Origin: Escherichia phage YDC107_1
DNA length: 46,701 bases
Strand: one strand, 5' to 3'
Sequence record: CP025712.1
The translations under genes and the position numbers were made by a program. Position 1 is the first letter of the stretch. Every line of letters begins with the position of its first letter. The notes under the pieces were generated by a model. It was given only the letters and a program-made list of their open reading frames with translations. It did not search any database and was not told the origin of the DNA. Shown here in pieces: positions 17,129-41,477 of the stretch.

Positions 17129-17312
17129 TGTTCATTCCACGGACAAAAACAGAGAAAGGAAACGACAGAGGCCAAAAGGCCTGTTTTCAGCACCTGTCGT
17201 TTCCTTTCTTTTCAGGGGGTGTTTTAAATAAAAACATTAAGTTACGGAGAAGAAGAACGGAAACGCCTTAAACCGGAAAATTTTCATAAATAGCGAAAAC
17301 CCGCGCGCCTTC
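17129..17312 (-). other. cos site (cosB upstream of Nu1 plus cosN)
   Basis: Reverse complement of 17129-17290 matches the lambda left-end cosB sequence as I recall it. Cohesive-end equivalent at 17296-17307 reads GGGCGGAAGGCG on the minus strand versus lambda GGGCGGCGACCT. Confidence 0.75.
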
Positions 17313-17390
17313 CGCCCCGTAGCCTGCCGGATCGCCGGAAAGGACCCGCAAAGGTGAGAATAATTATCACTTGCATTAATATCCAGCTTC

Positions 17391-17559
17391 TTCCACCATC
17401 GCACCGGACGGGCGACTATGAGGGACAAAACCGCGCACCATAAACGCGGTAAAAACCCGGTGTGCATCGTTTTTGATTATTTCCGCACACTCGCGCAGAA
17501 GGAATTCCCCGTCGGGCTACGGTCATGGTTAATGCGGAAATACGGCGACGATGCAGCGC
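17391..17559. repeat. Direct repeat copy A (about 169 bp), partner at 18341..18509
   Basis: Shared …CATGAGGGACAAA…CGGTAAAAACCCGGTGTGCATCGTTTTTGATTATTTCCGCACACTCGCGCAGA…TTCCCCGTCGGGCTACGGTCATGGTTAATGCGGAAATACGGCGACGATGCAGCGC with a few mismatches. Confidence 0.85.
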
Positions 17560-17679
17560 ATGATGTGTCAGGCTTGAATACCTTTATCCGTTAAAAGGGA
17601 TATCAGTTAAGTTATCCCGTGCAGGGTATAAGCCATTATCAAAGCCACTCAGTAGCGAATGGCTTTTGTAATGGACTAT

Positions 17680-18276
17680 TTAATTAGTGATGCTGCGTGG
17701 CTTCATACAAATTTCAGAAATATGATTCTTTTCGTCCAAATGATGCTGGACATCATTTTTATCATCACTCAACAACTCTGCTGTTAATACAATCCCTGCT
17801 GTCTCAGATTTCCAGGAAATGCTGATATCCTGATCATCTGCATCAACATCATATTTTATCGAGTAAGGACTAAAGCTACGTCCAACGAACGCATCATTTA
17901 CCAGTACACGCCCACCCTGTCTGACCTGAAAGTCAACGCGCCCTGAAAGCTGATTTGCTGTTACAAGCAATGCCTTTTTTCTTTTTGTTTTATTGCTCAT
18001 TGCCACCAACTGTTCAGCCATCTCTCTTGTCACACTACCAGAAACTCTTTCTTGAATTTTCACAGAAAATTTTCTGGATGTAGTAGCATCGACATTAAAA
18101 AATCTGGATGTCATCAGGCAGTTATTAACAATTGGCATCAGCTCACTTACGATTGTAAAAAATTCCCGGTAAAGCTCATTTTGCTTTTCAACACACAGCT
18201 TTCCACAATCGTCCAGCTTACGCTCAAGAGCACTTAATCTTTCCATTATTGAATTAATTTTTTGCAACTCTTTCAT
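17680..18276 (-). CDS. Hypothetical protein (AT-rich moron between lysis genes and cos)
   Basis: 198 aa from MKELQKINSIMERLSALERK with a strong SD (GGAGG) upstream. The ORF-track start at 18537 (MRPWSH…) is a GTG inside a palindrome and probably not used. No family recognised. Confidence 0.6.
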   Translation of the reverse strand: MKELQKINSIMERLSALERKLDDCGKLCVEKQNELYREFFTIVSELMPIVNNCLMTSRFFNVDATTSRKFSVKIQERVSGSVTREMAEQLVAMSNKTKRKKALLVTANQLSGRVDFQVRQGGRVLVNDAFVGRSFSPYSIKYDVDADDQDISISWKSETAGIVLTAELLSDDKNDVQHHLDEKNHISEICMKPRSITN

Positions 18277-18299
18277 CAAAACCTCCTGACAAAGATACC

Positions 18300-18317
18300 G
18301 TGCGACCACGGTCGCAC
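18300..18317. repeat. 18-bp palindrome GTGCGACCACGGTCGCAC (candidate SopB-type centromere or protein-binding site), copy 1
   Basis: Perfect palindrome just upstream of the moron gene start. Confidence 0.6.
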
Positions 18318-18340
18318 GCTCCTGAATACATGCCCTGTTT

Positions 18341-18509
18341 CTTCCACCCTCGCACAGGACTGGCGAGCATGAGGGACAAACCCGCGAATCATTAGCGCGG
18401 TAAAAACCCGGTGTGCATCGTTTTTGATTATTTCCGCACACTCGCGCAGAGGAGTTCCCCGTCGGGCTACGGTCATGGTTAATGCGGAAATACGGCGACG
18501 ATGCAGCGC
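18341..18509. repeat. Direct repeat copy B (partner of 17391..17559)
   Basis: See copy A; together they bracket the 17680..18276 gene. Confidence 0.85.
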
Positions 18510-18519
18510 GGTATTTAAT

Positions 18520-18537
18520 GTGCGACCACGGTCGCAC
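18520..18537. repeat. 18-bp palindrome GTGCGACCACGGTCGCAC, copy 2
   Basis: Intergenic, between the DUF4406-like gene and direct repeat B. Confidence 0.6.
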
Positions 18538-18556
18538 ACGAGAAACAAAGAGATTT

Positions 18557-18868
18557 TTATGCTACAGAGGAACAAGCTGGCGGGTAATTCAGCGTAGTGA
18601 ATACCGGCATCTCCATCTTGTATGCGTAATGATACTCAGCAGTTGCTCCAGCAGACGCTTTCCAGCCAGGAAGCATCAAAATAGCATCAGCACAACGAAG
18701 CATTGCAAAGCAAATATCCATGTATTCACGTTGTGTCAGACCATTAGGCAAAGTGGCTGGATTCAAGACAGAGTGACCATGTCGTGACAAACGATCTGCC
18801 TCTTTATTAAAGGCGTCACGATTAAAGTTCTCATATCCAGTCATTGGCCCGGCAATATAAATTTTCAT
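18557..18868 (-). CDS. DUF4406-like small protein (nucleoside deoxyribosyltransferase-like fold)
   Basis: 103 aa, MKIYIAGPMTGYENFNRDAF… N-terminus typical of that family as I recall; function unknown. Confidence 0.5.
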   Translation of the reverse strand: MKIYIAGPMTGYENFNRDAFNKEADRLSRHGHSVLNPATLPNGLTQREYMDICFAMLRCADAILMLPGWKASAGATAEYHYAYKMEMPVFTTLNYPPACSSVA

Positions 18869-18909
18869 TCACTATCCAACAAATTGAGTTCGTTTTTGAT
18901 ACAGAGGGA

Positions 18910-19377
18910 TTAATTCGGGCATTGCGTCTTGATGTATTCCTGAAGCGTTCTCAGTGCTGTCTGGTCTCTGATGATTCCGTCCCGGATACCGAGAACGTTT
19001 CGTCCAGCAACTGGAGAGAGTTCGACGGTGGCATCATTGCCCATGCCGGAGGCGCTGGAGGTTTCGGCTGAGGATGGCACAGAGCATTTTCCTTTGACGA
19101 GCACCCGACCACCATTATCAAGCTTGCGCCGAAGAGCATCATTTTCAGCTTTCGCATCAGCCAACTCCTTCGTGTATTTTGCATCGAGCGCAGCAACATC
19201 ACGCTGACGCTGCTGCATGTCAGCGATGGTGGCGGTCGCCTGCTTCAGCTCACTGACTTTTTTATCACGCTGTTCTTTGTAGGCGATGGCGTTATCACGG
19301 TAATGATTAACAGCCCACGACAGGCAGACGATGATGCAGATAACCAGTGCGGAGATAATTGCGGTTACTCTGCTCAT
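18910..19377 (-). CDS. Rz: Spanin inner-membrane subunit Rz
   Basis: Lambda Rz-like N-terminus [30 protein letters not shown], coiled-coil periplasmic domain. Confidence 0.85.
18951..19157 (-). CDS. Rz1: Spanin outer-membrane lipoprotein Rz1 (embedded in Rz, +1 frame)
   Basis: [21 protein letters not shown] lipobox followed by a Pro-rich segment. Confidence 0.7.
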
Positions 19378-19874
19378 TGCTGCCCCCACAAACAGACTTC
19401 ACGCTCAATCTCACGGCGAGTCATCAGCCCTTTCCATTGCTTACCGCCAGCATATGTCCAGCGACGTAGTTGATCACATGCACCTTTGATATCGCCCTGG
19501 TTGATTTTGCGAAGAAGTGTCGATGTTCTGAAATTGCCTGCACCCACGTTGTAAACGAACGAGTAAAGAGCACCACGCGTTGTTTCCGGTATATCGACTT
19601 TGATGTACGGGTTAATTTGTCTGGCGACAGTAGCAAGGTCTTTATTCAGGAGAGCTTTGCATTCTGCTTCGGTATACGTTTTACCGAGCATAATGTCTTT
19701 TCCTGTATGCCCGTAACATACAGTCCATACACCAACGATGTCTTTGTAGGGGTTATGTCTCACACCTTCCAGACCATCGTTGCCGCTCGGACCAGAGATG
19801 AGCACAGATGCTATGGCAATAGCCCCGCCACCAATAGCAGTTGCGACAGCTTTGCGTAATGATGACTGCATCAT
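19374..19874 (-). CDS. R: SAR endolysin (T4-type lysozyme, phage 21 R-like)
   Basis: 166 aa; N-terminal SAR segment [16 protein letters not shown] then lysozyme domain; close to P21 R as I recall. Confidence 0.88.
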
Positions 19875-20143
19875 ATTTCCTTCGGTGCTCTCTTTCCCAA
19901 TTCACCAATAACCATCGCCGTGGCGGAAATATTATTGGCATCAGTTTTATCCAATATGTCCTGCAATATCTTCGTGCGCTTCATCTGCTCGCGTTTATTG
20001 AGCCGGTATGTAAGTACACCGAGGATAATGCTGAACGCGACACCGATAATGAAGCCCCAATCCTGCAATGACAGGCTGGCAAAGAACGCAGTAAGACCAG
20101 CACTACCATAAGATGCGCTGCTGTATCGTTCATCCATCTTCAT
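19871..20143 (-). CDS. S: Holin, probably pinholin-type
   Basis: 90 aa; MKM dual-start motif; weakly hydrophobic TMD1 and TMD2 [18 protein letters not shown]; immediately upstream of a SAR endolysin. Confidence 0.65.
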
Positions 20144-20238
20144 ATCTCTTACCTCGCAATAGTTGCTGAGGTTTCGGCTTGGAAACTATACGGCGAGAAA
20201 TAACCCCATCAAAAACGGCAGGGGAATATATTCTTCAG

Positions 20239-21315
20239 TTACTCAAATAACTTTTTCACTTCATCAACTGTCTGAAGATAACGTTCACCCTCAATCTCAA
20301 TACCGATTGCCTGACGACCTAACTTCAGCGCGGCTTTAATAGTAGAGCCTGATCCCATAAAGAAATCGGCAACGATATCTCCGGGGCGGGAACTACTTTT
20401 TATAATATGTTCCATCATCGCTGCAGGTTTTTCACATGGGTGCTTGCCAGGATAATATTGCACAGGAGGAAACTCCCATACATCGGTATAAGGTACATCA
20501 GCAGTAACATGAAATGGGCGGCGCAAATTTTCATACTGAGCCTTCAAATCATCATACTGCTTCTTTACTTCCTCATAACGCAATTTCAGATCGCTATAAC
20601 GCTTTTCATGTTCTGAATAATCAACATTAAAAGGATATGGACACGGGACACCGAGTGAATCTGCCTTCCTGCGAAATAATTCGCATAGTTTATTAAAATC
20701 ACTTAATGATGGAAGCCGCCACTGCGAATAAGAAAACCAGTGCGAACACATCTGCTTTCCTGTTGCTGAATTAATGTCTGCGGCTGATATATCTAACTGA
20801 CGGCGAGCCAGCGAAAAAGCATCAATTAGTGGAGAAAAAATATTTTTTCTTAAATCTGCACATTTTGAAGCATAACCTGACTGACCTTTAGCATAACCTG
20901 ACGCGCCGTAATGCTCTGCAAATAATATTCTTTCAGTGGCAGGAAAATAAGCCCTTAAACTTTCTTTATGACAACCGCGCCACATACCACTGGGTTTAGC
21001 CCAAATGATATGGTTCAGAACATTGAAACGGTCGCGAGTTAATAATTCAATTTTTGACGCAAGGCGAGAGCCGGTAAACATATACAGGCTGCCATTAGGG
21101 GCCAATATCCGCCAAAATTCTGCCAAAAATTCATCAATCCACCCCAAAAAGTCAGCATCGCTATCCCACTGGTTATCCCATGCGTTAGCCTTTACGCCGA
21201 AGTATGGTGGGTCTGTTGCAATCAAATTGACCGAGTTATCAGGGATGGTTTTGATAAATTGCAGAGAATCTGCGCAAACGAGTTGCGCGCCATGAATATT
21301 AGTGGTTTTGAACAT
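20239..21315 (-). CDS. DNA methyltransferase (DPPY-type, N6-adenine or N4-cytosine)
   Basis: Motif IV LIATDPPYF near the N-terminus and motif I FFMGSGST near the C-terminus; likely start MFKTTNIHGAQ at 21315 (ORF-track start 21360). Confidence 0.8.
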   Translation of the reverse strand: MFKTTNIHGAQLVCADSLQFIKTIPDNSVNLIATDPPYFGVKANAWDNQWDSDADFLGWIDEFLAEFWRILAPNGSLYMFTGSRLASKIELLTRDRFNVLNHIIWAKPSGMWRGCHKESLRAYFPATERILFAEHYGASGYAKGQSGYASKCADLRKNIFSPLIDAFSLARRQLDISAADINSATGKQMCSHWFSYSQWRLPSLSDFNKLCELFRRKADSLGVPCPYPFNVDYSEHEKRYSDLKLRYEEVKKQYDDLKAQYENLRRPFHVTADVPYTDVWEFPPVQYYPGKHPCEKPAAMMEHIIKSSSRPGDIVADFFMGSGSTIKAALKLGRQAIGIEIEGERYLQTVDEVKKLFE

Positions 21316-21450
21316 AGCTATTATTTTTTTGCCTGGGTAAGCTAACCCGGCGATGCGCATCGCGGGTGGGCTTTAGGTTCAGCCTATAGCTCTGGCATGG
21401 GTTGACCGCAGGACAAGCTGCAACTTGTCCTGCGCCCACTTTTCAGGCAC

Positions 21451-21472
21451 AAAAAAACCGCCATAAAGGCGG
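21451..21472 (-). terminator. Rho-independent terminator on the late (minus) strand upstream of the methylase/lysis block, tR'-like position
   Basis: Minus-strand CCGCC-TTTAT-GGCGG followed by seven T. Confidence 0.5.
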
Positions 21473-21559
21473 CTTGTTGGCTGTTGGGTACAAAAAACCC
21501 AACTTAACAAAACAATAACTAAAAACCGTAATTTTGCCAAGCTTTTTCGTTTTTGTGCT

Positions 21560-21577
21560 GTGCGACCGTGGTCGCAC
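21560..21577. repeat. 18-bp palindrome GTGCGACCGTGGTCGCAC, copy 3 (opposite orientation of the central dinucleotide)
   Basis: Intergenic, in the late regulatory region. Confidence 0.6.
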
Positions 21578-21582
21578 AGTTT

Positions 21583-21810
21583 TTAGAAAGTTGCCTGCTT
21601 ATATTCATCGGTCAAAGAATATCGACCAGACCCGCTACGCTTTGCAACCCCAAAACAGATCATCTGTTCGATGATAAATTCAACGGCAGCTTGACTCAAA
21701 AAACAGGCTTCGCTTAACTCTTTCAGGGAAATGCGTGGGTATCCACGCATAACACATTCCACACTCAGGGCCGCTTCAGTCATATTTCCACGAATTTCAT
21801 TAATATTCAT
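21583..21810 (-). CDS. Hypothetical small protein
   Basis: 75-aa ORF just upstream of the terminator region; no family recognised. Confidence 0.45.
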   Translation of the reverse strand: MNINEIRGNMTEAALSVECVMRGYPRISLKELSEACFLSQAAVEFIIEQMICFGVAKRSGSGRYSLTDEYKQATF

Positions 21811-21823
21811 AACGCCTCTCTAA

Positions 21824-22063
21824 TCAATCTTGAAACTGGAAATCAACATCAGCCATAAAGCGGTTCAACTCAGCCAGTTTTGGCCCCATAGTCCCAACTA
21901 AGCGACCAGCCAGTCGGTCTGCCAGGTTGGTACTGTTGAAACCATATTCCTTTTCGAAACGTTCAACCTTCTGCCACAACTCATACAGTTCGTTAGCTAT
22001 CTCCGCAACGTCGTCGCGCATTTTTTCGTTACCTTGATAATTCATAATATCCTCCAAATTCAT
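21824..22063 (-). CDS. Hypothetical small protein
   Basis: 79-aa ORF; no family recognised. Confidence 0.45.
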   Translation of the reverse strand: MNLEDIMNYQGNEKMRDDVAEIANELYELWQKVERFEKEYGFNSTNLADRLAGRLVGTMGPKLAELNRFMADVDFQFQD

Positions 22064-22210
22064 ATAGTTAGTGGGTTATTGCCCCTCAATGACACGAACT
22101 GTAACTCTGCCAAACGAACACATCCAGTGTTATTTTTCACTTTTTAGTGAAATTTTTAATTTGCGCTTTTTTCTTGTTTTGGTGTATTTTATGGCTATGG
22201 AGGCTATAAT

Positions 22211-22522
22211 ATGTTTAACGTGATAACCCACCCTGCAGCACTGGATGAACTGCTTGAACTACCAGATGATTTGCGAGGTCGCATGACCAGATTAATTGAG
22301 CGACTGGAGAAGGAAGGCAACAAACTGAAGATGCCCCATAGCCGTGTAATAGGTGGAGGGCTTTTTGAACTACGAGTAGGGGATAAAAACATCGCAAGAA
22401 CGCTGTACGCCTACGCGACTGGTAACGAAATTTATCTATTGCATGCATTTGTAAAAAAGACACAGAAAACACCGGTGAAGGCTATCGAAATCGCCAGAAC
22501 TCGCCTGAAGGAGATGAACTGA
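22211..22522 (+). CDS. Type II toxin, HigB / Gp49-like (RelE/ParE superfamily)
   Basis: 103 aa with …GGGLFELRVGDKNIARTLYAYATGNEIYLLHAFVKKTQKTP… typical of Gp49/HigB; SD GGAGG; upstream palindrome TTTCACTTTTTAGTGAAA at 22135-22152 is a candidate operator. Confidence 0.8.
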   Translation: MFNVITHPAALDELLELPDDLRGRMTRLIERLEKEGNKLKMPHSRVIGGGLFELRVGDKNIARTLYAYATGNEIYLLHAFVKKTQKTPVKAIEIARTRLKEMN

Positions 22523-22809
22523 TGAAAGCGAAAGGCATCCCGTTTAACGAAGTAAAAGAAAAACTTCTCAACACTCCAGAAGCCATCAAAGGATATGAAG
22601 AGGCCGATAAAGAGCTGGAGATGGTCGAAATGTTATACGAAATGAGGGAAAGAGCAGGTTTAACGAAATCAGCTCTGGCTGAACGAATGGGGTTGCGACC
22701 GTCAGCCATCAGCCGCCTGGAAAGCAATCCTTTAGGGGCAAGTATGAAAACTTTGGCTAAATATGCTCATGCCTGCGGCGCAACCATCGATATTCGCGCT
22801 GTTTATTAA
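22522..22809 (+). CDS. HigA-like HTH (XRE family) antitoxin
   Basis: 95 aa, HTH LTKSALAERMGLRPSAISRLE; start overlaps toxin stop (ATGA). Confidence 0.8.
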   Translation: MKAKGIPFNEVKEKLLNTPEAIKGYEEADKELEMVEMLYEMRERAGLTKSALAERMGLRPSAISRLESNPLGASMKTLAKYAHACGATIDIRAVY

Positions 22810-25932: not shown

Positions 25933-26233
25933 TTTCTTGTGCGACCACGGTCGCACCCTCTCTGATTTCCAAGTAACGCTTAATCCAAAGATTTTCTATA
26001 TGCTTATTACCTGGCTGATTTGATAAATACCAATCGGCAATTACAGACTGCTTATTACTATCTGGTCGTGTCCTGTAACCACAAGTTGGACACCAAATAA
26101 CATATTCATTTCTTACCCCCGAATACCTTAATTCTGGCTTCGACGGTTTCCTGAACATAACTTGTTTACAAAGGCAGAATGGCACTTCCTGCCCGATGGC
26201 GTTTGATGATTTCACTGCGCTTCTCCGCCGCAT
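25913..26233 (-). CDS. Hypothetical protein with CxxC zinc-ribbon motif
   Basis: 106-aa ORF with CPTCG; start uncertain. Confidence 0.4.
   Translation of the reverse strand: MRRRSAVKSSNAIGQEVPFCLCKQVMFRKPSKPELRYSGVRNEYVIWCPTCGYRTRPDSNKQSVIADWYLSNQPGNKHIENLWIKRYLEIREGATVVAQENENNAI
25939..25956. repeat. 18-bp palindrome GTGCGACCACGGTCGCAC, copy 4
   Basis: At the junction of two small early genes. Confidence 0.6.
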
Positions 26234-26876
26234 TTAATAATGCGGTTCGATTTAAGCTCAGACATCGCGACTTAATTAAAAGCCAGCGTTCTTTATAATC
26301 TTGTCTCCAGCTATCAATAGATATATTCAGTAGAAAACTCAGATGCCTGTCCTGTTCTCTCTCATCAACTGCCTCAGCACACGTAAGTTCTGATTTAACC
26401 TGTTGTGCCGCGTAATAAATCAATTTCCGCATGGCTTTTTTCGTGGAGGCCTTCATTTTTTTAAAGCCGCCCCCCGAATGAGCAACCAGAAAATCAAGCC
26501 ATAACCACTGACAAACAATCACATCATTGTTGTAATCAGGCTTGCATCCGTAGCAATAATAAAGCCAGGCTGATTCCTCGTTATTCAACTGACCAATAGC
26601 CCTGCGCCAGCTGGCGCTCTGAAAATCAATATCAGTGAGCAACATTGATGATTGTTTAAATGTTTTCCCCTGATGGAATCTAACCGGCTCAGCAGGAACG
26701 GACACTTCGTATGAGTTATCATCCCCCACACTGATTGACCGGACTGGTTTATTGTTAAACCGTCCTGATCTACCGAGACGCATCTGCTCAAGCTGGACCT
26801 CCAGAATGCCACGCTGGCGATAATGAACATCAGCCAATGCCGTAGAGACGCAGCTGCGTATATACTCAAGCTCCAC
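26166..26876 (-). CDS. Hypothetical early protein directly downstream of cro (regulator or Q-like candidate)
   Basis: 236 aa from a GTG start with SD AAGGAG; contains CYGC…C cysteines; family not recognised. Confidence 0.5.
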   Translation of the reverse strand: MELEYIRSCVSTALADVHYRQRGILEVQLEQMRLGRSGRFNNKPVRSISVGDDNSYEVSVPAEPVRFHQGKTFKQSSMLLTDIDFQSASWRRAIGQLNNEESAWLYYCYGCKPDYNNDVIVCQWLWLDFLVAHSGGGFKKMKASTKKAMRKLIYYAAQQVKSELTCAEAVDEREQDRHLSFLLNISIDSWRQDYKERWLLIKSRCLSLNRTALLNAAEKRSEIIKRHRAGSAILPL

Positions 26877-27087
26877 GCTTACGACTCTCCTTAATCGACT
26901 GCTTTACCCGCCGAGTTGTAAAGTCACTCTTCAGCTTATAAGCAGTACGAACTTCAATATCGCTTTGCCGCAATGAAGGAATCTCTCCAGCGGTTAACCA
27001 TTGGTAAACAGCTCCGGGTGTTACACCTACCCCTGCCGCTGCTTTTTCTACACTGCCAAAATGGCGAATAAGTTCTTCTGGTTTCAT
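26866..27087 (-). CDS. cro: Cro-like HTH repressor
   Basis: 73 aa from MKPEELIRHFGSVEKAAAGVGVTPGAVYQWL; divergent from the repressor gene. Confidence 0.7.
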   Translation of the reverse strand: MKPEELIRHFGSVEKAAAGVGVTPGAVYQWLTAGEIPSLRQSDIEVRTAYKLKSDFTTRRVKQSIKESRKRGA

Positions 27088-27118
27088 GTTGTTATTATAA
27101 ACAATAAACAACAATTAA

Positions 27119-27156
27119 AGCCAGCTATAATAAATAAATTTTATAGCCAGCTATAA
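27119..27156. promoter_or_regulatory. Operator region between cro and cB: two AGCCAGCTATAA repeats
   Basis: Repeats at 27119-27130 and 27145-27156; the second lies in the near-palindrome TTATAGCCAGCTATAA; AT-rich promoter context. Confidence 0.5.
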
Positions 27157-27178
27157 GAAGATCATTTATGATTACAGT

Positions 27179-27775
27179 ATGAAAACACGAGGCGAACGAC
27201 TGAAAGCACGCCGTTTAGAGATGAAGCTGACGTTGCGAGAAGTTGCTGAGGCTGTCGATATCTCTATAGCAGGCGTCCAAAACTTAGAACGTGGCGACGT
27301 AATGCCGTCACTGGAGATAGGTATTGCCCTGGCTAAGTGCTTACGCAAGCCAGTGCATTGGGTGCTATATGGGACAGAATATGACCCTGATCGCATTCCT
27401 GTTATTGGCACAACTGAAAGTGGGCCGGATGAAGAGTGGAAGCCGGGACAGGTTCCAAATACTGAGCGATTCCTGCCATTCATCAGCCAGCGCAATACTG
27501 TGTATGCGTTAACTATCAGCAATCTTACGCAGGGAAACTATCAGCCAGGCGATTTTCTCCTGGTCGATTCTGCGCTGGAACTGGTCCCCGGCGAGGATGT
27601 TCTGGTTCGTGATACTGCAGGAAATATCACTATCCAGCGCCTGGCCCGTTTTGATGATGAAAATTACTATCTGGATGGAACAAACTCACAACGCGCCATC
27701 TTCAGGAAAAGCGATCTTGAATTTGTTCACCAAATAGTCGGAACGATCAAATCATTCATGGTTGAGGGTAGATGA
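27179..27775 (+). CDS. cB: Prophage repressor (N15 CB / lambda CI analogue): HTH plus degenerate LexA-like C-terminal domain
   Basis: 198 aa; N-terminal HTH LTLREVAEAVDISIAGVQNLERG. Confidence 0.8.
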   Translation: MKTRGERLKARRLEMKLTLREVAEAVDISIAGVQNLERGDVMPSLEIGIALAKCLRKPVHWVLYGTEYDPDRIPVIGTTESGPDEEWKPGQVPNTERFLPFISQRNTVYALTISNLTQGNYQPGDFLLVDSALELVPGEDVLVRDTAGNITIQRLARFDDENYYLDGTNSQRAIFRKSDLEFVHQIVGTIKSFMVEGR

Positions 27776-27869
27776 CTTAATACGGGGTTTATTGTTTGCT
27801 GTAAATCTGGTTTAATGCAGGGCATATGTTCTGTGGGTTGACTCAGGTTACAGCAGCAGAAAAAAGACG

Positions 27870-27905
27870 AAAAAAAACCCGAGTCGGCAAACTCGGGTCC
27901 TTTTC
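27870..27905. terminator. Bidirectional rho-independent terminator after the repressor gene
   Basis: A-run, CCCGAGT-CGGCAAA-ACTCGGG, then T-run. Confidence 0.5.
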
Positions 27906-28020
27906 AGGAAGCAGCCACAACAACGCGACAGATTCCGTCAATTCAAGATGCGTTTATTGTGGCTGCTCCTGCGGATTTTTTCAACCCGAAAAAACATAAT
28001 TCGCATGGAATGGCTAAAAA

Positions 28021-31000
28021 ATGACATTAAACGATTTCTATGCGGATCGCTTTGGCAGCGATCCGTTCTCGCTAATTGAAGCAGCACGGGATGAACTAAC
28101 CGAGCTGGCACAGATGGCTGGTATCAACTGGCCTGCCTGTTCCGACAACATCCAACTCAACCCTCGCGGGGGGGTTGAGCGTTACTCTTCATACAATAAA
28201 ACATCTCCAGAAGCTCTCGAAAAGAGCCTGAAAGGACGCGTAGAAATTTACTCCAGGCTGGAACACAGCAAAGGGATTGATTACCCGTTCATTAACTTCG
28301 TCCATAAAGGCAGCGATGCTGGCTCATGGAGCGGTTTCTCCTTCCTGTTTTCTGAATATCGCCGTGAGCAACAACGGAATAATGCGACCGTGGTCGCACA
28401 ACCGGAAGAAGAACGGGAAAGAATAGAACGTCAGGCCGAAGCACGTCGTCGCCGTGAAGAACAAAAACGAATTAATGACCTGAAAAACAACCAAATGGAC
28501 CATGAACGTTTGCTGGGATGGCTGGCATTCCACAGCGCGTGGGAACATGCTCAGGCTGAAGACGGCTCATGGCCATATGCGATTAAAAAAGGTATTCGTG
28601 ACGTTTTTAGTTCATGTGATGTGCGTCGCGTGACCAGTCACGACAGTGCGAAATGGAGCCGGGGGCCAACCACATATATGGCTATCCCTCTGGCTCACCT
28701 GGACGGTCGTTATGATGGTCGTATTGTGGGTTGGCAGCGAATCGACAAACAAGGTGGGAAATACCAGACCAGCGCAGTAACCAGCGGCGATTTCGTCGGT
28801 GCCTGCTTTGTTATCGGTGAGCTGAAAGGGGCGCAAAACATCGCTGTTACAGAAGGTTTTGCTACTGGTGCATCCATCTGGCTTGCCACGAAAAAAGATA
28901 AACGCTTTGACGCGGTGGTTGTCGCTGTATCCGCTAACAACATGGTTCATGTTGTGGAACAACTGGTAAACATGTACCCGGCGGCAAAAATCACCTGCGC
29001 ACTGGATAATGACCGGAAATCTGCCACAGAAGGAAAAGGGAATACCGGCCTGCGGACTGGCTATGAAATCTTATCGAAATTCAACGATGTCCGCTGCGTC
29101 TACCCAACTTTTGAAGACGATCCGCAAATGGAGTGCAGTGACTTCAACGACCTGCACAAACTACGTGGACTTCGTGAAACAGCACGTCAACTATTTGCAA
29201 CAGCAAACCGCCTGAAAACCGGCACTGATTTGCTATCTCTGACGCTCAACCGCCTGAAGACAATTAAGCGGGATAACCGTCGTACTTTTGCCAAAGAGCT
29301 GCTGAGAGCGGTGGATATTGGCATGCTAACCTGTCCGGTTCCTAACAGTCCGTCAGATTTGTTTAACATGTTCTGTATCGTTCTGCGTGAAATGGGGCTG
29401 GAAAATATCTATCGCGCTACGGTAAAAGACCACATTGCCCGTCGCCTGAATAAAAAATGCCGTATTGCCCAGGCTCCGCGCTCTTTCAGCGAACGCATAA
29501 CTGATCCCAATAAACGCCCTCAACATATCACCTATAAGCGTTTTGAAACTTCGGTAATGACCTATGACGTCCTGAAGTACGTGCAATCACTACAGGGGAT
29601 CGTCATCGTTCGTGCTGGTATGGGTTCCGGCAAATCTACTGGATTGTTACGACCGTTAATGCATAGCTCAGAACGCGGTATCTCTGTAGCTCACCGTGTT
29701 TCCCTTATTGGTGGCCTGTGGGAAATGATGACTGAAGGAAAAGGTGTAAAAGCCGATATCCTGCACTATCAGGACCCTGGCTATCAGGAAATGGCTCCAT
29801 ACGCCAGTAAACTGACCATCTGCATAAACTCGATTGTTAAAAACTGCTGGCAACCGTTGATGCGCCAGCACGACTATTTTGGCTTTGACGAGGCCACACA
29901 AGGGCTACGTGCCGTTCTTTCCGGTCGGGCTATGGAAAACCCAGTGGCTGTATTCAATACGCTAATTGACGCGCTGGCCAGAACGGAACAACACCCAATA
30001 ATGGTGGATGCTGATGCGAACGATCTGCTGGTTGACCTGGCTGAACTGGCTATGAAACGCCGTGAAGAACTAGGTTTACCGGCATGGCTGCAGATCCACG
30101 TAATTGAATTACCTGTTGATGTTCGCAACCGCGAAACAGGTGAGCCAATCCGGGTTTTTTATACAGAAAAAGATCGCATCATGACCGAGGTGGTGAAAGC
30201 TGTATCGGATGGCGAAAAAATCATGTTGGCCACCGACAGCTCCACCTTTGCAGAAGATGTGACCGCCACCCTGAGAATGCATTTTCCTGGTAAGAAATTT
30301 CTGTGCGTAAACCAGAAAAGCAAACAGGATGAAGAAGTCGATGCTTTTACCAACCAGCCAAAAGTAATGGTGATGAAATACGATGGACTGATCTACAGCC
30401 CGTCGATTTCCTCCGGGGTGTCATTTGAGAAAAAACATTTTGACCGTCATTTCGGCATGTTCTGCGGTGAAGTTGTGCCCAGCGACGCAGTGCAAATGCT
30501 ACGCCGCGACCGTACAGCAAAAGAATTTATTATCGGCTTTGATAAAGCTCGTGCAAAACGCGAGACTGATCCGCAAAAAATAGAACGTGCATTCGCCCAG
30601 GCATTACTTGCTACCGCAGGCATGAACGGTGAACTGACGGATGTCGTTTTCGATGGCGACCGTATATCAATGGGGGTGGCCAATACCGACTTTACCAGGA
30701 TGAAAATTAAAGCTGCCGCTATTGAAGCGTCTGCGCGTAACGACTACGCCAGCAACATGATCTGCATCATGCACAGCGACGGTTATAAGGTATCGCCATT
30801 AGCTACTGATTATGCCGCAAATGATTTTGGTAAAGAGCTGCGCAAAGAAGCGCGGGATATTGTGTGGGAACAGACGCTGGATCTGCACCTCAATACAGAG
30901 ACACCAGAAGAATCAGAGCGTGAAGAACTACTAAAAAAACGTGCGCTAACGCTTGAAGAACAGGCAAAACTTGTCCGCTGGGATATTGAGAACGAACTGA

Positions 31001-32004
31001 AACTACCGGTTGAAGAAGGCACGCTGAAATTCTATTTCGATGGTGCTCGAGACAAAATTCGCCGTTATGAAACGATGCTGCTTGATGAAGTCACAGCCCG
31101 TCGTTATGACCGTGAAGAAGCGGCTATCAATTTTACATACGCATACCGCCAGACCGGACAGTGGCAATATTTTGTGGTGACCGCGATGACACGCGAGCAG
31201 GCTGATGATGTATTCAAAGCGAAATTTCCGGGAATAATCGACTACAAGGTAAAAGCCACCCCAGCTGTTGAGGTCGGCATGCGCGGATTCTATGCGCTTA
31301 AATCAGCAACTCTCCGGCAGTATTTTATCGACTGCGGTATCGACCCTGAAACTATGACTGGCGAAGCGACGCAGGAACGCCTTAAGTTCGCTCGAGATAA
31401 TCTCATGACAGCAGAACGCCGTGACCTGTTGAATAACGTTCTGCGCATTGGTGGTTTTATGACACCAAAAGGGAAGCCTAAAGTGCCGGAAGCACTGTTT
31501 AAAAACATCTGCGACTCTCTCGGCCTAAAAACAGGAAAACGTCGCGGCAGAGATGGCGATAAGCGCCCGACATTGCGTTTTGTTGAGCCTGAGTCTGTAG
31601 CATTTATGCTTGATATTCTTACGCAACGTCAGGAGGACGGTATGACGTTGAAAGCTCGCAAGGCAGAAAAATCAACGACCGAAGTGGATCGCGATTTGTC
31701 ATTAAATATATATATGAATGGTGAAACGCGATCCACAAACACGGAGGAACAGGATCCCCCTCGTTCAGCTATATCACAGGCTTTGGCTGTATTGCCGGTG
31801 GCTGTTCCTGAGTCCTGGGCGATGAGTGCTCTGCCATCAGCCGAACTGGAATCTATCAGGGGGTGGTCAGTTGACAGCATCGCATACACGTTTGCAGCCC
31901 TTTATATGACTGAGTTTATGGATTTGCTGTCCGGTCATGAGATTAAGTTGCTGAAGGCTTTTATAGGCCCACGACATGCCAGCGATGAGTTTTGTGTAGT
32001 TTAG
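28021..32004 (+). CDS. repA: Replication protein: Toprim primase fused to a helicase/NTPase (N15 RepA / P4 alpha-like)
   Basis: 1327 aa; Toprim motifs (VTEGFATGASIW, ALDNDRKSATEGKG); Walker A GMGSGKST; Walker B-like FDEATQ. Confidence 0.9.
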   Translation: MTLNDFYADRFGSDPFSLIEAARDELTELAQMAGINWPACSDNIQLNPRGGVERYSSYNKTSPEALEKSLKGRVEIYSRLEHSKGIDYPFINFVHKGSDAGSWSGFSFLFSEYRREQQRNNATVVAQPEEERERIERQAEARRRREEQKRINDLKNNQMDHERLLGWLAFHSAWEHAQAEDGSWPYAIKKGIRDVFSSCDVRRVTSHDSAKWSRGPTTYMAIPLAHLDGRYDGRIVGWQRIDKQGGKYQTSAVTSGDFVGACFVIGELKGAQNIAVTEGFATGASIWLATKKDKRFDAVVVAVSANNMVHVVEQLVNMYPAAKITCALDNDRKSATEGKGNTGLRTGYEILSKFNDVRCVYPTFEDDPQMECSDFNDLHKLRGLRETARQLFATANRLKTGTDLLSLTLNRLKTIKRDNRRTFAKELLRAVDIGMLTCPVPNSPSDLFNMFCIVLREMGLENIYRATVKDHIARRLNKKCRIAQAPRSFSERITDPNKRPQHITYKRFETSVMTYDVLKYVQSLQGIVIVRAGMGSGKSTGLLRPLMHSSERGISVAHRVSLIGGLWEMMTEGKGVKADILHYQDPGYQEMAPYASKLTICINSIVKNCWQPLMRQHDYFGFDEATQGLRAVLSGRAMENPVAVFNTLIDALARTEQHPIMVDADANDLLVDLAELAMKRREELGLPAWLQIHVIELPVDVRNRETGEPIRVFYTEKDRIMTEVVKAVSDGEKIMLATDSSTFAEDVTATLRMHFPGKKFLCVNQKSKQDEEVDAFTNQPKVMVMKYDGLIYSPSISSGVSFEKKHFDRHFGMFCGEVVPSDAVQMLRRDRTAKEFIIGFDKARAKRETDPQKIERAFAQALLATAGMNGELTDVVFDGDRISMGVANTDFTRMKIKAAAIEASARNDYASNMICIMHSDGYKVSPLATDYAANDFGKELRKEARDIVWEQTLDLHLNTETPEESEREELLKKRALTLEEQAKLVRWDIENELKLPVEEGTLKFYFDGARDKIRRYETMLLDEVTARRYDREEAAINFTYAYRQTGQWQYFVVTAMTREQADDVFKAKFPGIIDYKVKATPAVEVGMRGFYALKSATLRQYFIDCGIDPETMTGEATQERLKFARDNLMTAERRDLLNNVLRIGGFMTPKGKPKVPEALFKNICDSLGLKTGKRRGRDGDKRPTLRFVEPESVAFMLDILTQRQEDGMTLKARKAEKSTTEVDRDLSLNIYMNGETRSTNTEEQDPPRSAISQALAVLPVAVPESWAMSALPSAELESIRGWSVDSIAYTFAALYMTEFMDLLSGHEIKLLKAFIGPRHASDEFCVV
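28383..28398. repeat. 16-bp core TGCGACCGTGGTCGCA, copy 5, inside repA
   Basis: Outer bases not complementary (16 of 18); mirrored copy at 45080-45097. Confidence 0.5.
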
Positions 32005-32021
32005 AGGGTAGAAGCGTGGGA

Positions 32022-32288
32022 ATGATGCAAGAGTGCCTCGTTTTGATTGAAGGGTATGATCCGTATGTTGTTAACGTCAGCAGAATGGATACTGGCTATA
32101 GCGACTACAAAACTGGTCGTGAACTGCCGTTCACCATCATCAGGATGAATAGCTTTGGCGATGATGATGCTGTTTATTGCTGTATAGCCAGCGATAAAAA
32201 CATGGAAGACCGGACAGATGAAGCCCGTATGCTATTGAGGAAATATAAGGTAAAGCCGTTATCAGAGAATAACGCTGAGAGGGGTTAA
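32022..32288 (+). CDS. Hypothetical protein
   Basis: From ATG MMQECLVLIEGYDP (ORF-track start 31992 is TTG). Confidence 0.45.
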   Translation: MMQECLVLIEGYDPYVVNVSRMDTGYSDYKTGRELPFTIIRMNSFGDDDAVYCCIASDKNMEDRTDEARMLLRKYKVKPLSENNAERG

Positions 32289-32290
32289 AA

Positions 32291-32686
32291 ATGGCAGTTC
32301 AATCATACAAATACGAATCCCCTTTGGATAAGGGATACATTCGTATCAAGTTAAGTCGTTCTCAGCATAAGGCTATTTTTAAGGTAAGGAAAATTCGCAT
32401 ATTGGATGCGTATGCGTATTACTACAACGGTGAAAATGTTGTTGTTGAACACTTTCTTGCACGATGGTTTGTAGCTCTGATTTTTGTCCCTCTCCTGTTA
32501 ATTGGTACTTTTGTGGATGGTTTTCCTAGTACATGGCGGGAGATAAAGAAAGGCCTATTCCCGCGTAAGTACGGCAGATTTTCGCAAGATAGCTGGCGAG
32601 TTATACCTGGTAAACATTCTGTGGATGAGCAGCCGATTGTTGATTACTGGTTGAAGCATATGGCTGATGCTAAAAAAGTTGATTGA
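32291..32686 (+). CDS. Hypothetical membrane protein
   Basis: 131 aa with SD GAGAGGGG; TM segment WFVALIFVPLLLIGTFV. Confidence 0.5.
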   Translation: MAVQSYKYESPLDKGYIRIKLSRSQHKAIFKVRKIRILDAYAYYYNGENVVVEHFLARWFVALIFVPLLLIGTFVDGFPSTWREIKKGLFPRKYGRFSQDSWRVIPGKHSVDEQPIVDYWLKHMADAKKVD

Positions 32687-32704
32687 GTTGTGGAAGGAGT
32701 ATTT

Positions 32705-32929
32705 ATGAACTGTAACAAAAATGAAGAAACTCGCCTGGTTTGGACGGTAGTAATCGGAGATAAAGAGGGCGGTGAAGAGCCTCATTTTGATTATTCTGTG
32801 GCTTTGCAGGCTCTCATCCTTGAAGCGCAGAGATACCAACAAGAGATGCAGAAGAACCCTCAACTGGAACCTCGACCAATTGGCCTATTCTGCGAGCGAG
32901 TATCAGCGGCGGAACTCCCTGATATCTGA
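32705..32929 (+). CDS. Hypothetical small acidic protein
   Basis: MNCNKNEETRLVWTVVIG…; SD GGAAGGA. Confidence 0.45.
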   Translation: MNCNKNEETRLVWTVVIGDKEGGEEPHFDYSVALQALILEAQRYQQEMQKNPQLEPRPIGLFCERVSAAELPDI

Positions 32930-33120
32930 TGCCCTCCAACAGCTGATCAGGTTCTGATCAGTTAGTAAAGCAAACTATAAAAACACCTGTCCCCGTGACT
33001 GGTCACGGGGTAAAATGTCTTTGCAAATTATTGACGTGTGCGTCGTTTTGACGGTAAAGTTACTTCGCTGCGGTAAATCCCGTAGCCGGGACTCTCAACC
33101 CCGAAATCCGAACGACGCAC

Positions 33121-33143
33121 AACACGCGCCAGCGTGTTTTTTT
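33121..33143 (+). terminator. Rho-independent terminator ending a short untranslated transcript upstream of the anti-repressor operon
   Basis: AACACGC-GCCA-GCGTGTT followed by a T-run. Confidence 0.45.
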
Positions 33144-33309
33144 GTGTGTATGAGCCTGCGCATATCCGAATTATGGTGGCTCAGGTGGGGCAGCCGAAAG
33201 GCTGGCCGGTGTCGTTTGGGCCGGTGTTGAGAACCCCGCTTGGGCTACCACCCCATAGAGATTCTCAACTCTGGTGGTAGCACTGTTTTACCAAACAAGA
33301 GTGCATACC

Positions 33310-33474
33310 ATGTTCAAATTCAAATTTGCGGCAGTCGTTCGCACAGACAAAAAGTCACACATCCATCATCTTTCCACCATCGCGTCATCTGAACGGGAAG
33401 CTCGTCGCCAGTTCGCCAGCCGGTTTGTCCTGGTATTGTCTGCCCGTATTCCGGTGCGCGAGGTGGCTGCATGA
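33310..33474 (+). CDS. Small protein, first gene of the anti-repressor operon (Icd-like position)
   Basis: 54 aa from MFKFKFAAVVRTDKK. Confidence 0.35.
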   Translation: MFKFKFAAVVRTDKKSHIHHLSTIASSEREARRQFASRFVLVLSARIPVREVAA

Positions 33475-33704
33475 ATCAGGTAAAAATGAACACTGTTGGC
33501 CTGCTGGAATCGTTGGATGAACGTCTGGCTCAGGTCTATGCGCTTGTGTCATCAGCCCATCGTACAGTCTCCAGTTGTGAGGCGTCGATTTATCTCTCAG
33601 AAGCCGGGAAGCTCCTTCAAATCGCGTGTGAGTTGACACACAAAGCACAGGGGTATTCAGCATCTCTCTCGTCGCAATTGCAGCACAATAAGGAGGCCAA
33701 ATGA
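33471..33704 (+). CDS. Hypothetical protein (anti-repressor operon)
   Basis: 77 aa, SD GAGGTGG, ATGA-coupled to neighbours. Confidence 0.45.
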   Translation: MNQVKMNTVGLLESLDERLAQVYALVSSAHRTVSSCEASIYLSEAGKLLQIACELTHKAQGYSASLSSQLQHNKEAK

Positions 33705-34477: not shown

Positions 34478-34649
34478 GGTTGGCCAGCCCGAATTGATGC
34501 CCTTCTTAGTGAGGGGAAGCCTCGCAGTCTGGGCGGTGATGTCTGTGGTTGCAGCCGCGTTTCCTCCGTTACTTCTGCCCTTTGCAGGGGGCAGGCGAGG
34601 CAGGCCACATAACAAGGCACCGATTAATTCGGTGCCTTTAACGTATGCT

Positions 34650-36551: not shown

Positions 36552-36714
36552 CTTTCCTCTCCTGATTATCCGCTCGGATTATCGTAACACAATTTGAGAA
36601 TAAGATAACTAATAACGCGTTAACTTAGGCACAAACTAACAGAACACAATAACGGATAATAAATAAAAACACAATATCGGAACGTTAAAATTTGTTCCTT
36701 GACTTTGTTCTGAA

Positions 36715-36770
36715 AATCAGCACATAATTTCCCATTATACGCGCGTATAATGGGAAATTATGTGCTGATT
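36715..36770. other. telRL-like telomere resolution site; centre of dyad symmetry between 36742 and 36743
   Basis: AATCAGCACATAATTT-CCCATTATACGCGCGTATAATGGG-AAATTATGTGCTGATT, same architecture as N15 telRL as I recall. Confidence 0.8.
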
Positions 36771-36933
36771 TTCAGAACAAAGTCAAGGAACAAATTTTAA
36801 CGTTCCGATATTGTGTTTTTATTTATTATCCGTTATTGTGTTCTGTTAGTTTGTGCCTAAGTTAACGCGTTATTAGTTATCTTATTCTCAAATTGTGTTA
36901 CGATAATCCGAGCGGATAATCAGGAGAGGAAAG

Positions 36934-40778: not shown

Positions 40779-40796
40779 AAATACTCCTTCCACAAC

Positions 40797-41191: not shown

Positions 41192-41193
41192 TT

Positions 41194-41460: not shown

Positions 41461-41477
41461 TCCCACGCTTCTACCCT

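Follow-up and report, generated by a model that had tools for sequence, protein, structure and literature searches.

Organization of the lysis cassette

The window, by which we mean the whole stretch of 46,701 nucleotides analysed here, carries a compact lysis cassette at positions 18910–20143, and both ends match boundaries in the ORF list exactly. All lysis genes are encoded on the minus strand. The earlier note had described a phage 21-type lysis cassette at this site with the strand unstated; its observation is real with respect to both the ORFs and the family matches, which at the sequence level are far above chance for all four lysis proteins. The genes and associated features are:

20143..19871, minus strand: holin gene, 90 aa, product begins M-K-M; PHROG 1350 'holin'
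19874..19374, minus strand: endolysin gene (SAR endolysin, GH24 lysozyme), 166 aa; PF00959
19794..19850, minus strand: putative SAR segment of the endolysin, residues ~9–27, from alignment to R21 and hydropathy
19377..18910, minus strand: Rz (i-spanin), 155 aa; PF03245
19157..18951, minus strand: Rz1 (o-spanin), 68 aa, wholly inside Rz in the +1 frame; PF06085
20151..20172, minus strand: small RNA hairpin at the holin Shine-Dalgarno (SD) sequence, from MFE folds
20239..21360, minus strand: DNA adenine methyltransferase, PF01555 at 1.3e-46; first gene of the late operon
21475..21455, minus strand: intrinsic terminator ahead of the methylase, from synteny with N15
21540..21512, minus strand: late-promoter-like site TTGGCA-17-TATTGT, from synteny with N15

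Reading the junctions from the sequence, the holin stop and endolysin start overlap as ATGA, as do the endolysin stop and Rz start. All four lysis ORFs are full length, and their starts, overlaps, ribosome sites, SAR segment and lipobox are intact. The cassette is an ordinary further representative of a known kind of lysis-gene set, combining a two-helix holin, a phage-21-type membrane-tethered lysozyme and nested Rz/Rz1. Phage 21 (S21-R21-Rz21-Rz1_21, OL657228.1), the pinholin/SAR endolysin paradigm, has the same gene order and the same stop/start overlaps, and its Rz1, which also carries a lipobox, likewise sits inside Rz in the +1 frame. At the DNA level, homology to phage 21 covers 19864..19130 only, and the label 'phage 21-type' suits just two parts, the endolysin and the 5′ half of Rz; it does not extend to the holin, which is 34% identical to S21 and falls short of the Pfam cut-offs for both the P21-S and the HP1 family.

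A phage 21 R-like endolysin and nested spanins

The endolysin matches PF00959 (5e-48, 162.9 bits) and is 93% identical over 165 residues to phage 21 R, and also to the solved R21 structures, PDB entries 3HDE and 4ZPU. Translation from the second ATG (19871), the start chosen in the PhiR46_1 record and in the R21 alignment, would give 165 aa. Behind a basic N-terminus lies a Gly/Ala-rich segment that resembles the SAR of R21 in composition and hydropathy, with T12 in place of A and S27 in place of T as the only differences. Its hydrophobicity is weak, as in R21, with a best 15-mer Kyte-Doolittle value of 2.03 versus 2.20 and positive Hessa sums. An endolysin devoid of a SAR domain was explicitly looked for; instead, the alignment shows an N-terminal SAR domain, as the earlier note had described. 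Residues E36, D45 and T51 align with the corresponding residues of R21, and the Glu/Asp/Thr set, which we take from published R21 work to be the catalytic triad, is retained.

Rz matches PF03245 at 6.5e-31 (107.6 bits versus a threshold of 25.4). Its ORF opens upstream at a GTG (19389), whereas the homologous start is the ATG at 19377 (MSRVTAI...); the PHROG 13 alignment begins at residue 5 of the GTG form. Rz is 61% identical to phage 21 Rz, with a nearly identical N-terminal half, an N-terminal TMD at residues ~4–24 by hydropathy, and cysteines (Cys99 and Cys153) that align with those of phage 21 Rz. Rz1 starts 220 nt into Rz, in the +1 frame, and stops at 18951 within it; a ribosome site, AAGGAG, lies 7 nt ahead of the ATG. 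The protein, a lipoprotein precursor, matches PF06085 above threshold (8e-21, 73.9 bits versus 27.9) as well as PHROG 3198, and its lipobox V-V-G-C19, with Ser at +2 (S20), precedes a proline-rich mature part, which bears out the out-of-frame nesting and lipobox noted earlier. Rz1 is 48% identical to phage 21 Rz1, and in both spanin components the C-terminal halves have diverged from their phage 21 counterparts.

A two-TMD holin with a long basic tail

The holin is a class II protein with two TMDs. A weak TMD1 at residues ~7–26 is joined by a Q27–D28 loop to a strong TMD2 at residues 29–46, followed by a tail spanning residues 47–90. In a hydropathy scan of 15-residue windows, counting those with a mean Kyte-Doolittle value above 1.0, the only windows to pass lie in residues 10–49. 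The AlphaFold2 model places helices at 3–22, 26–66 and 72–85 and forms a helical hairpin, with pLDDT of 84–93 for residues 21–50 and ~55 for the tail. A third TMD, of the kind expected in a three-TMD class I holin, was looked for in this topology analysis and was not found; the candidate at 72–85 was rejected as an amphipathic, low-confidence helix of low hydropathy. The two-TMD assignment of the earlier note is therefore upheld, with segments at 7–26 and 29–46.

The comparison with S21 reveals both shared and divergent elements. TMD1 consists of 65% Gly/Ala/Ser/Thr versus 60% in S21 TMD1, insofar as composition alone can be compared, its summed Hessa energy is +3 to +4 kcal/mol and it is free of charges, all of which makes it SAR-like. 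The TMD2 motif G34xxxS38xxxG42 aligns with S21 G40xxxS44xxxG48, and in the homologue alignment G34 never varies, with conservation of at least 90% at S38 and G42. Besides having two TMDs each, both proteins combine a TMD1 rich in G/A/S/T with a TMD2 of the form GxxxSxxxG...LTY, and both open with a dual start that includes a basic residue. In contrast, identity is 34% over 53 residues, and S21 has 71 aa rather than 90, a loop of ~8 residues rather than 2, and a tail of 13 residues (net +3) rather than 44. The additional length noticed earlier resides in this charged tail, which carries 10 K/R and 6 D/E for a net charge of +4. Given the 2-residue loop, the short TMD2 (18 residues) and a tail three times longer, the oligomer formed by this holin could differ from that of S21. 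Tail positions N49, R51, E52, Q53, R56 and T57 are invariant in the close holin family, a [KR]RT tail motif is kept across the wider family, and the protein as a whole is under clear purifying selection across genera.

Family searches place the holin close to established groups. It matches PHROG 1350 'holin' at 2e-31 and reaches 22.1 bits against PF04971 (Phage_holin_2_1, S21 type; gathering cut-off 26) and 26.0 bits against PF16080 (Phage_holin_2_3, HP1 family; cut-off 28.8 in the Pfam copy used), the latter being its best Pfam match. An identical protein carries a precomputed PF16080.11 match in the protein database. The NCBIfam search returned no family for the holin, Rz1 or DUF4406. Alignment of the holin family by hhalign gave probabilities of 94–95% against S21 (E 7e-8 to 1.5e-7) and 95.1% against HP1 Hol (E 3e-8), each over the TMD region, and 97.1% for the family profile against N15 gp53 (E 7e-11), where residues 1–87 align with 1–99 across both TMDs and the tail. 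Among these three reference holins, only gp53 matches over its full length, in an alignment that takes in an M-R-M start, a short QD loop and a tail with a KRT motif. Pairwise BLASTP between the holin and gp53 was not significant; a gp53-like representative, P0157, was recovered by exhaustive HMM search. The profile alignments support homology to S21, of which the holin is a distant relative at 34% identity.

The holin of Haemophilus phage HP1 shares an SL(Q/H)(D/E)W loop motif and a similarly placed TMD2 (27–44 versus 29–46 here). Both proteins end in a long, hydrophilic, charged C-terminal domain and are paired with a SAR lysozyme, but HP1 Hol is 28% identical, has no dual start and has an unrelated tail sequence. 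It has been reported experimentally to be a pinholin that works with a SAR endolysin, and to do so without a dual start (PMC7312051). The same study reported an unusual C-out topology, so that topology may differ among members of the holin superfamily. A literature search found no experiment on the present holin family. In 78 of the 78 readable related loci, the gene following the holin encodes a lysozyme with a SAR-like N-terminus, overlapping or spaced by –3 to +4 nt, and never a soluble lysozyme.

A conserved dual start and a hairpin at the ribosome site

The holin sequence offers two candidate starts, Met1 (20143) and Met3 (20137), within M1-K2-M3. The dual start suggested in the earlier note appears to be a family trait: M-[K/R]-M-D occurs in 80/80 related viral loci and is kept by 90% or more of the diverse homologues, with a basic residue always at position 2. 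N15 gp53 begins M-R-M and S21 begins M-K-S-M. Spacing from the SD is 8 nt to ATG1 and 14 nt to ATG3.

The hairpin at 20151..20172 has 9 bp with one bulge and a folding energy of about –9.6 kcal/mol, and its 3′ arm is the GAGG(U) SD itself, 8 nt before ATG1. Hairpins of differing sequence occur at the same place in 28 distinct upstream regions of the family, in N15 and in phage 21; in N15, homology can be recognised across the ribosome-binding region and its hairpin. In a shuffle test, the SD paired probability averaged 0.77 for the family versus 0.60 in shuffles, a moderate difference; the individual result was good for only a subset of members, the window (1 of 100) among them. When the whole 149-nt 5′ region of the holin mRNA was folded, no excess stability was detected (z = +0.73), and RNAalifold returned no consensus structure for 21 upstream regions aligned with MAFFT; this alignment is not structural, because the hairpins differ in sequence and length. 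As the shuffle test is moderate, we put the role of the hairpin forward as a hypothesis: it may regulate which of the two starts is chosen.

Genomic context on an N15-like linear plasmid prophage

The element is an N15-like linear plasmid prophage rather than a classical lambda prophage, as indicated by its telomere palindrome and its synteny with N15. An inverted duplication of ~10 kb has the palindrome, CCCATTATACGCGCGTATAATGGG, at its axis, and telL/telR are annotated in the near-identical PhiR46_1 record. The Q gene (26876..26166, PF06323 at 4e-84) sits next to cro, and the late region follows the N15 gene order. The 'lambda-like late region' of the earlier note holds for the late operon, which depends on Q, and for the head and tail genes, but not for the replicon.

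The late operon starts with the DNA methylase, not the holin. The methyltransferase lies directly upstream of the holin across a 95-nt gap and is syntenic with the N15 gene 52 region at ~73% DNA identity. Ahead of it, in a region with DNA homology to N15, the promoter-like site and terminator are syntenic with the -35/-10/stem-loop annotated in N15 before gene 52, and the site at 21455..21540 is presumed to be the Q-antiterminated start of the operon carrying the lysis genes. A promoter and terminator scan of 17300–22500 was at chance level (10 versus 9.4 expected, and 6 versus 4.9), and only the pair syntenic with the annotated N15 sites was used from it; a promoter-like match upstream of the holin (20212..20185) was given no weight. 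In phage 21 the cassette directly follows Q-pR′-tRNAs, whereas here the methylase intervenes and Q is 5 kb upstream beside cro. A tRNA scan of the window detected none, so there is no phage-21-like tRNA pair between late promoter and holin.

N15 itself (genes 50–57) is the same type of replicon with the same synteny: late promoter, terminator, methylase, holin, lysozyme, spanin and DUF4406. It differs in encoding another lysozyme, of 178 aa, and a DUF2514-type spanin in place of an R21-type R and embedded Rz/Rz1. No DNA homology to N15 was detectable across the cassette (20249..18874), and a holin shared with N15 at the DNA level was rejected, except for ~45 nt around the ribosome site. The closest relatives are Escherichia phage PhiR46_1 (PV340565.1), a complete genome record with E. 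coli ECOR13 listed as host, and E. coli 'plasmid' records of ~46 kb, among them NZ_CP165740.1. The cassette is 99.8% identical in PhiR46_1, whose genome is colinear with the entire element, and identity over this set of records ranges from 99.8 to 100%. Records of this type already annotate the holin, lysozyme R/RrrD, and Rz or 'lysis protein'. In the PhiR46_1 record, Rz1 is unannotated and Rz is given the upstream GTG start (19389 here); the variable insert downstream of DUF4406 also differs from that of the window. No paper on this near-identical phage came up in a literature search on PhiR46 and ECOR13.

Proposed lysis pathway and alternative explanations

We consider it probable that the locus is a complete, functional holin/SAR-endolysin/two-component-spanin cassette, carried on the minus strand of an N15-like linear plasmid prophage within its Q-antiterminated late operon. 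In such a cassette, the endolysin would be exported by Sec and its Gly/Ala-rich SAR would keep it anchored in the inner membrane in an inactive state, as shown for R21, while the 90-aa holin would build up as a membrane hairpin of two helices with both termini on the cytoplasmic side. The longer Met1 product, with its extra Lys, may act as a weak antiholin that delays the weakly hydrophobic TMD1 in leaving the membrane. Its departure from the bilayer would come at a set time, and TMD2, bearing the GxxxSxxxG face, would oligomerise into small lethal holes. Collapse of the membrane potential through these holes would then release and activate the SAR endolysin, leading to murein degradation, after which the Rz/Rz1 complex would fuse or disrupt the outer membrane. 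Homology to S21 and the HP1 holin suggests pinhole rather than large-hole formation and an antiholin role of the Met1 form, and by the same analogy the SD hairpin and the 44-residue basic tail may contribute to start choice and timing, respectively.

An alternative that we regard as unlikely is that the protein is a holin but not a pinholin, forming large non-specific holes, given that any depolarising hole would free a SAR endolysin. SAR endolysins are also served by large-hole holins, P1 Lyz being one example, and the gene pairing consequently does not prove a pinhole. The scores under both Pfam gathering thresholds, the 2-residue loop and the much longer conserved cytoplasmic tail, both unlike S21, and the uncharacterised status of the full-length relative gp53 are all consistent with large holes, whereas S21 and HP1 Hol, two of the three references compared, are pinholins, the TMD2 face and the SAR-like TMD1 are conserved, and the partner is invariably a SAR lysozyme. 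It is also rather improbable that M-K-M is not a working dual start, with a single product and timing set otherwise, for example by the long basic tail. The SD spacing favours ATG1, HP1 Hol works with one start, and the hairpin statistics are weak; against this, the M-[K/R]-M-D start recurs throughout the related loci and homologues, gp53 and S21 have comparable starts, and a hairpin involving the SD recurs with different sequences.

Decay of the cassette into a prophage remnant that is no longer lytic has very little to recommend it. Cryptic lysozyme genes of the R21 type, DLP12 rrrD for instance, do occur on many E. coli chromosomes, and the R-Rz part was matched in 5098/5426 genomes. However, the four full-length ORFs retain every signal listed above, the element is colinear with the complete PhiR46_1 genome, and the holin is under purifying selection across genera. 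A further reading, improbable in our estimation, concerns the functional cassette itself: the conserved 44-residue tail would be a dedicated regulatory domain, common to this holin family and N15 gp53 and absent from S21. If so, the tail may set lysis timing via the membrane surface or via a phage or host partner, which would amount to a mode of pinholin control undescribed for S21 or HP1. As a related possibility, the proteins of this family may not be pinholins at all.

Implications

For the cassette on N15-like E. coli phage-plasmids, the functional reading favoured here matters little beyond annotation, to which it contributes the correct strand, the correct starts and the unannotated Rz1. 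With respect to evolution, the analysis shows the lysis cassette to be a swapped module, exchanged as a unit between N15-like elements and the lambdoid gene pool, and shows that the holin has been exchanged separately from R-Rz. The holins related to the one described here define a small, uncharacterised class II/pinholin branch with a long conserved tail, to which N15 gp53 is distantly related over its full length, and this branch could serve as a comparison set for studies of pinholin timing control.

Gene organization and similarity to phage 21

ORF reading of the window places four genes within 18910-20143, on the minus strand throughout:

20143..19871, minus, holin, 90 aa
19874..19374, minus, lysozyme (the SAR endolysin, R), 166 aa, or 165 aa from the second ATG
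19377..18910, minus, Rz, 155 aa; the ORF opens also at GTG 19389
19157..18951, minus, Rz1, 68 aa; stop inside Rz

The holin stop and lysozyme start overlap in ATGA, as do the lysozyme stop and Rz start. The phage 21 R/Rz junction shows the same ATGA overlap, and phage 21 S and R overlap by one nucleotide, an arrangement that the second lysozyme ATG (19871) also gives in the window. All Rz homologues align from MSRVTAI and not from the GTG 19389 extension. Rz1 starts 220 nt into Rz, and is therefore in the +1 frame, with the ribosome site AAGGAG-N7-ATG; its lipobox is V-V-G-C19 with Ser at +2, and the mature part is proline-rich, in agreement with the earlier note, which had described an Rz1 nested out of frame in Rz with a lipobox.

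Family scans were unambiguous for three of the four proteins, namely endolysin (Pfam PF00959, 5e-48; PHROG phrog_7 'endolysin', 3e-69), Rz (PF03245, 6.5e-31; phrog_13 'Rz-like spanin', 2e-74), and Rz1 (PF06085, 8e-21; phrog_3198 'Rz-like spanin', 2e-26). The holin matched phrog_1350 'holin' (2e-31), and its Pfam matches were sub-threshold only: PF16080 (HP1) at 26 bits against a threshold of 28.8, and PF04971 (P21 S) at 22.1 bits against 26.

Proteins were compared one by one with the curated phage 21 record OL657228.1. The endolysin is 93% identical to phage 21 R (154/165), matches the R21 structure 3HDE and DLP12 RrrD 4ZPU (E ~1e-104), and retains the residues aligned with the catalytic Glu/Asp/Thr of published work. 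Its SAR segment differs from that of R21 at two positions and is as weakly hydrophobic, which upholds the assignment to the phage 21 R type with a SAR segment. Identity is 61% for Rz, whose first ~85 residues are nearly identical while the C-terminal half has diverged, 48% for Rz1, and 34% over 53 residues for holin and S21 (pairwise E 1e-4).

DNA homology to phage 21 is limited to 19864-19130, corresponding to R and the 5′ half of Rz. The whole R-Rz/Rz1 block occurs at ~92% identity in many lambdoid and P22-like phages, in all of which the match ends inside R, within ~40 nt of its start (10-43 nt); one of these, JLK-2012, instead has a 68-aa S-like holin gene at the holin position. Given these endpoints and the different JLK-2012 holin, the holin is a separate mosaic unit. 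Among 5426 complete E. coli genomes, 5098 contain the R-Rz part and nine the whole cassette, all nine copies being on plasmid records of 46-75 kb.

Three phages with the same holin family have an extra ORF of 35-60 aa ('hypothetical protein') between lysozyme and Rz, which is absent from the window:

Salmonella phage UPF_BP1, 2558-2665 of its sequence L007
Providencia phage PSTCR3, 2522-2704 of its sequence L008
Proteus phage vB_BPM-V3, 2522-2680 of its sequence L009

Holin architecture and a probable pinholin assignment

Hydropathy reveals two hydrophobic segments in the holin and no third, as the two TMDs proposed earlier imply. Residues 7-26 (TMD1) are weakly hydrophobic, charge-free and 65% Gly/Ala/Ser/Thr, with a summed Hessa energy of +3 to +4 kcal/mol; only Q27-D28 separate them from the strongly hydrophobic residues 29-46 (TMD2). 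S21 has the same hydropathy pattern, its TMD1 being 60% Gly/Ala/Ser/Thr, and the TMD2 series G34xxxS38xxxG42 followed by LTY aligns with the G40xxxS44xxxG48-LTY face of S21. An AlphaFold2 model (41 homologues) places helices at 3-22, 26-66, and 72-85, with good confidence for residues ~20-50 only. The tail (residues 47-90) carries 10 Lys/Arg and 6 Asp/Glu, consistent with the charged C-terminal extension noted previously, and the MKM dual start of the 90-aa holin likewise holds at the sequence level, with 90 aa and M-[K/R]-M-D at 80/80 viral-contig loci. Across the 41 homologues W29, G30, F31, G34, T45, N49, R51, E52, Q53, R56, and T57 are invariant, and conservation reaches at least 90% at M1, M3, S38, and G42.

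The exact holin protein is common (at least 1000 contigs), and its family is small: when 1.84 billion cluster representatives were searched exhaustively by HMM, 53 scored at E <= 1e-3, most of them matching across both TMDs and the tail. Against the wider family profile, N15 gp53 matches at full length (97.1%, E 7e-11), whereas S21 (94.6%, E 7e-8) and the HP1 holin (95.1%, E 3e-8) match in the TMD region only. Gp53 starts with M-R-M and contains two TMDs and a short ..QD loop; the KRT motif recurs in its tail. Killing by the HP1 holin reportedly releases no beta-galactosidase, and the protein reportedly works together with a SAR endolysin, which makes it a pinholin (PMC7312051). In all 78 related loci whose next gene is readable, that gene lies -3 to +4 nt from the holin, overlapping or abutting it, and its product is a lysozyme whose N-terminus carries an xSLRxK-[Gly/Ala-rich ~20 aa] segment; the same pairing occurs in UPF_BP1, Providencia PSTCR3, Proteus V3, Pantoea PA-1, N15, HP1, and phage 21.

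That the cassette is a working holin/SAR-endolysin/spanin set is very likely. With distinctly less assurance, we consider a specific pinholin function probable. The chief alternative, still plausible on sequence, is a large-hole holin: such holins can likewise serve SAR endolysins, and the holin family differs from S21 in its shorter loop and much longer conserved tail; the hydropathy pattern and TMD2 face, on the other hand, are those of S21. The phage 21/HP1 scheme is the most likely mechanism. The SAR endolysin would be exported by Sec and held in a tethered, inactive form while the hairpin form of the holin accumulates, with the Met1 form acting as antiholin via its extra Lys. TMD1 would then leave the membrane, TMD2 oligomers would form small holes, the endolysin would be released and activated upon depolarisation, and Rz/Rz1 would disrupt the outer membrane.

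Holin translation start

The candidate starts are ATG1 (Met1, 20143) and ATG3 (Met3, 20137). Eight nucleotides before ATG1 lies the following feature:

20151-20172, RNA hairpin, 9 bp, about -9.6 kcal/mol

The GAGG(U) Shine-Dalgarno sequence forms its 3′ arm. The hairpin recalls stem-loops described for lambda S and S21, likewise at their dual starts. In the minimum-energy folds of 28/28 distinct family upstream regions, a hairpin of widely differing sequence occupies this position (e.g. AUCCCC/GGGGGU, CUCCCGC/GCGAGGAG, and CUUCCG/CGGAGG); N15 and phage 21 have one too. A stretch of ~45 nt around the ribosome site shows recognisable homology among the window, N15, and UPF_BP1. For the window, one of 100 shuffles paired the Shine-Dalgarno sequence equally well, and mean pairing over 32 sequences was only moderately raised (0.77 versus 0.60 in shuffles). 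RNAalifold found no structure in the sequence alignment of upstream regions. Because the statistics are moderate and RNAalifold returned nothing, we offer as a hypothesis that the hairpin may help choose between Met1 and Met3.

An exchanged module in an N15-like element

The window is 99.8% identical to Escherichia phage PhiR46_1 in the cassette and about 95-98% elsewhere. The PhiR46_1 record carries telL/telR annotations at its ends; its genes include those for ParA/ParB and for a primase-type replication protein of 1332 aa, and head and tail genes of lambda type. Gene order is that of phage N15:

cro and Q (Q 26876..26166; PF06323, 4e-84)
early genes
late promoter-like site, 21540..21512; terminator, 21475..21455
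DNA methylase
holin, lysozyme, spanin
DUF4406 protein
cos and terminase genes

N15 DNA homology reaches the methylase end (20250) and restarts at DUF4406 (18873); the intervening 1.37 kb, exactly the lysis cassette, has no DNA match to N15, which carries gp53, a 178-aa lysozyme, and a DUF2514 spanin there. The cassette has therefore been swapped as a unit, with junctions that coincide with gene boundaries, as is usual among lambdoid phages.

Directly after Rz, 18557-18868 (minus) encodes the DUF4406/nucleoside 2-deoxyribosyltransferase-like protein (PF14359, 3.7e-34), homologous to N15 gp57, where N15 homology restarts. On the strand opposite to the late genes, 22211-22809 (plus) encodes a Gp49/RelE-type toxin (PF05973, 2.5e-29) and then an HTH antitoxin (PF01381, 1.6e-12), syntenic with N15 genes 49 and 48.

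A perfect 18-bp palindrome, GTGCGACC-NN-GGTCGCAC, occurs six times in the window (0.01 expected), its copies flanking the late-operon segment that carries the cassette:

18300-18317
18520-18537
21560-21577
25939-25956
28382-28399
45080-45097 (mirror copy)

N15 has three copies in syntenic positions: one follows Q, one immediately precedes the late promoter, and one follows gene 58, this last being labelled a putative terminator in the N15 record. The palindrome is a candidate terminator, protein-binding site or recombination hotspot. Two ~190-bp direct repeats (17372-17559 and 18323-18509; 87-98% identical) lie either side of a variable insert, which in the window is 779 bp with a 198-aa ORF (18276..17680, minus; PHROG 2571, unknown function; no Pfam match) and in PhiR46_1 is 1.6 kb; phage 21 has the repeat element downstream of bor. 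The insert looks like a moron or cargo slot.

The final ~10 kb (36743-46701) is the ~100% reverse complement of 26776-36742, with its axis (36742/36743) in the palindrome CCCATTATACGCGCGTATAATGGG, where the near-identical phage record has a telL annotation. The contig appears to read round the telomere of a linear plasmid prophage, a covalently closed hairpin; alternatively, the inversion stems from a head-to-head replication intermediate or from an artefact of assembly. Relative to PhiR46_1, the window is without the right ~9 kb (3′ part of J, lom, stf, parAB, and telR). Adjacent Rfam matches to C4 antisense RNA (71.8 bits) and isrK (54.9 bits), both above gathering score, lie at 33067-33255 (plus), mirrored at 40228-40416 (minus), which presumably reflects an antirepressor operon under small-RNA control of the N15 immA type.

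Significance

The cassette type is textbook knowledge; GenBank already holds a 99.8% identical cassette, and RefSeq plasmid records contain 100% identical copies, the existing annotations being holin, lysozyme, and Rz or 'lysis protein'. Both the endolysin and the spanins closely copy proteins that have been studied, and the holin family with its KRT-motif tail is the only untested element of the cassette. The gains for annotation are small: an unannotated Rz1, a likely ATG start for Rz, and a relationship connecting the holin family to N15 gp53.
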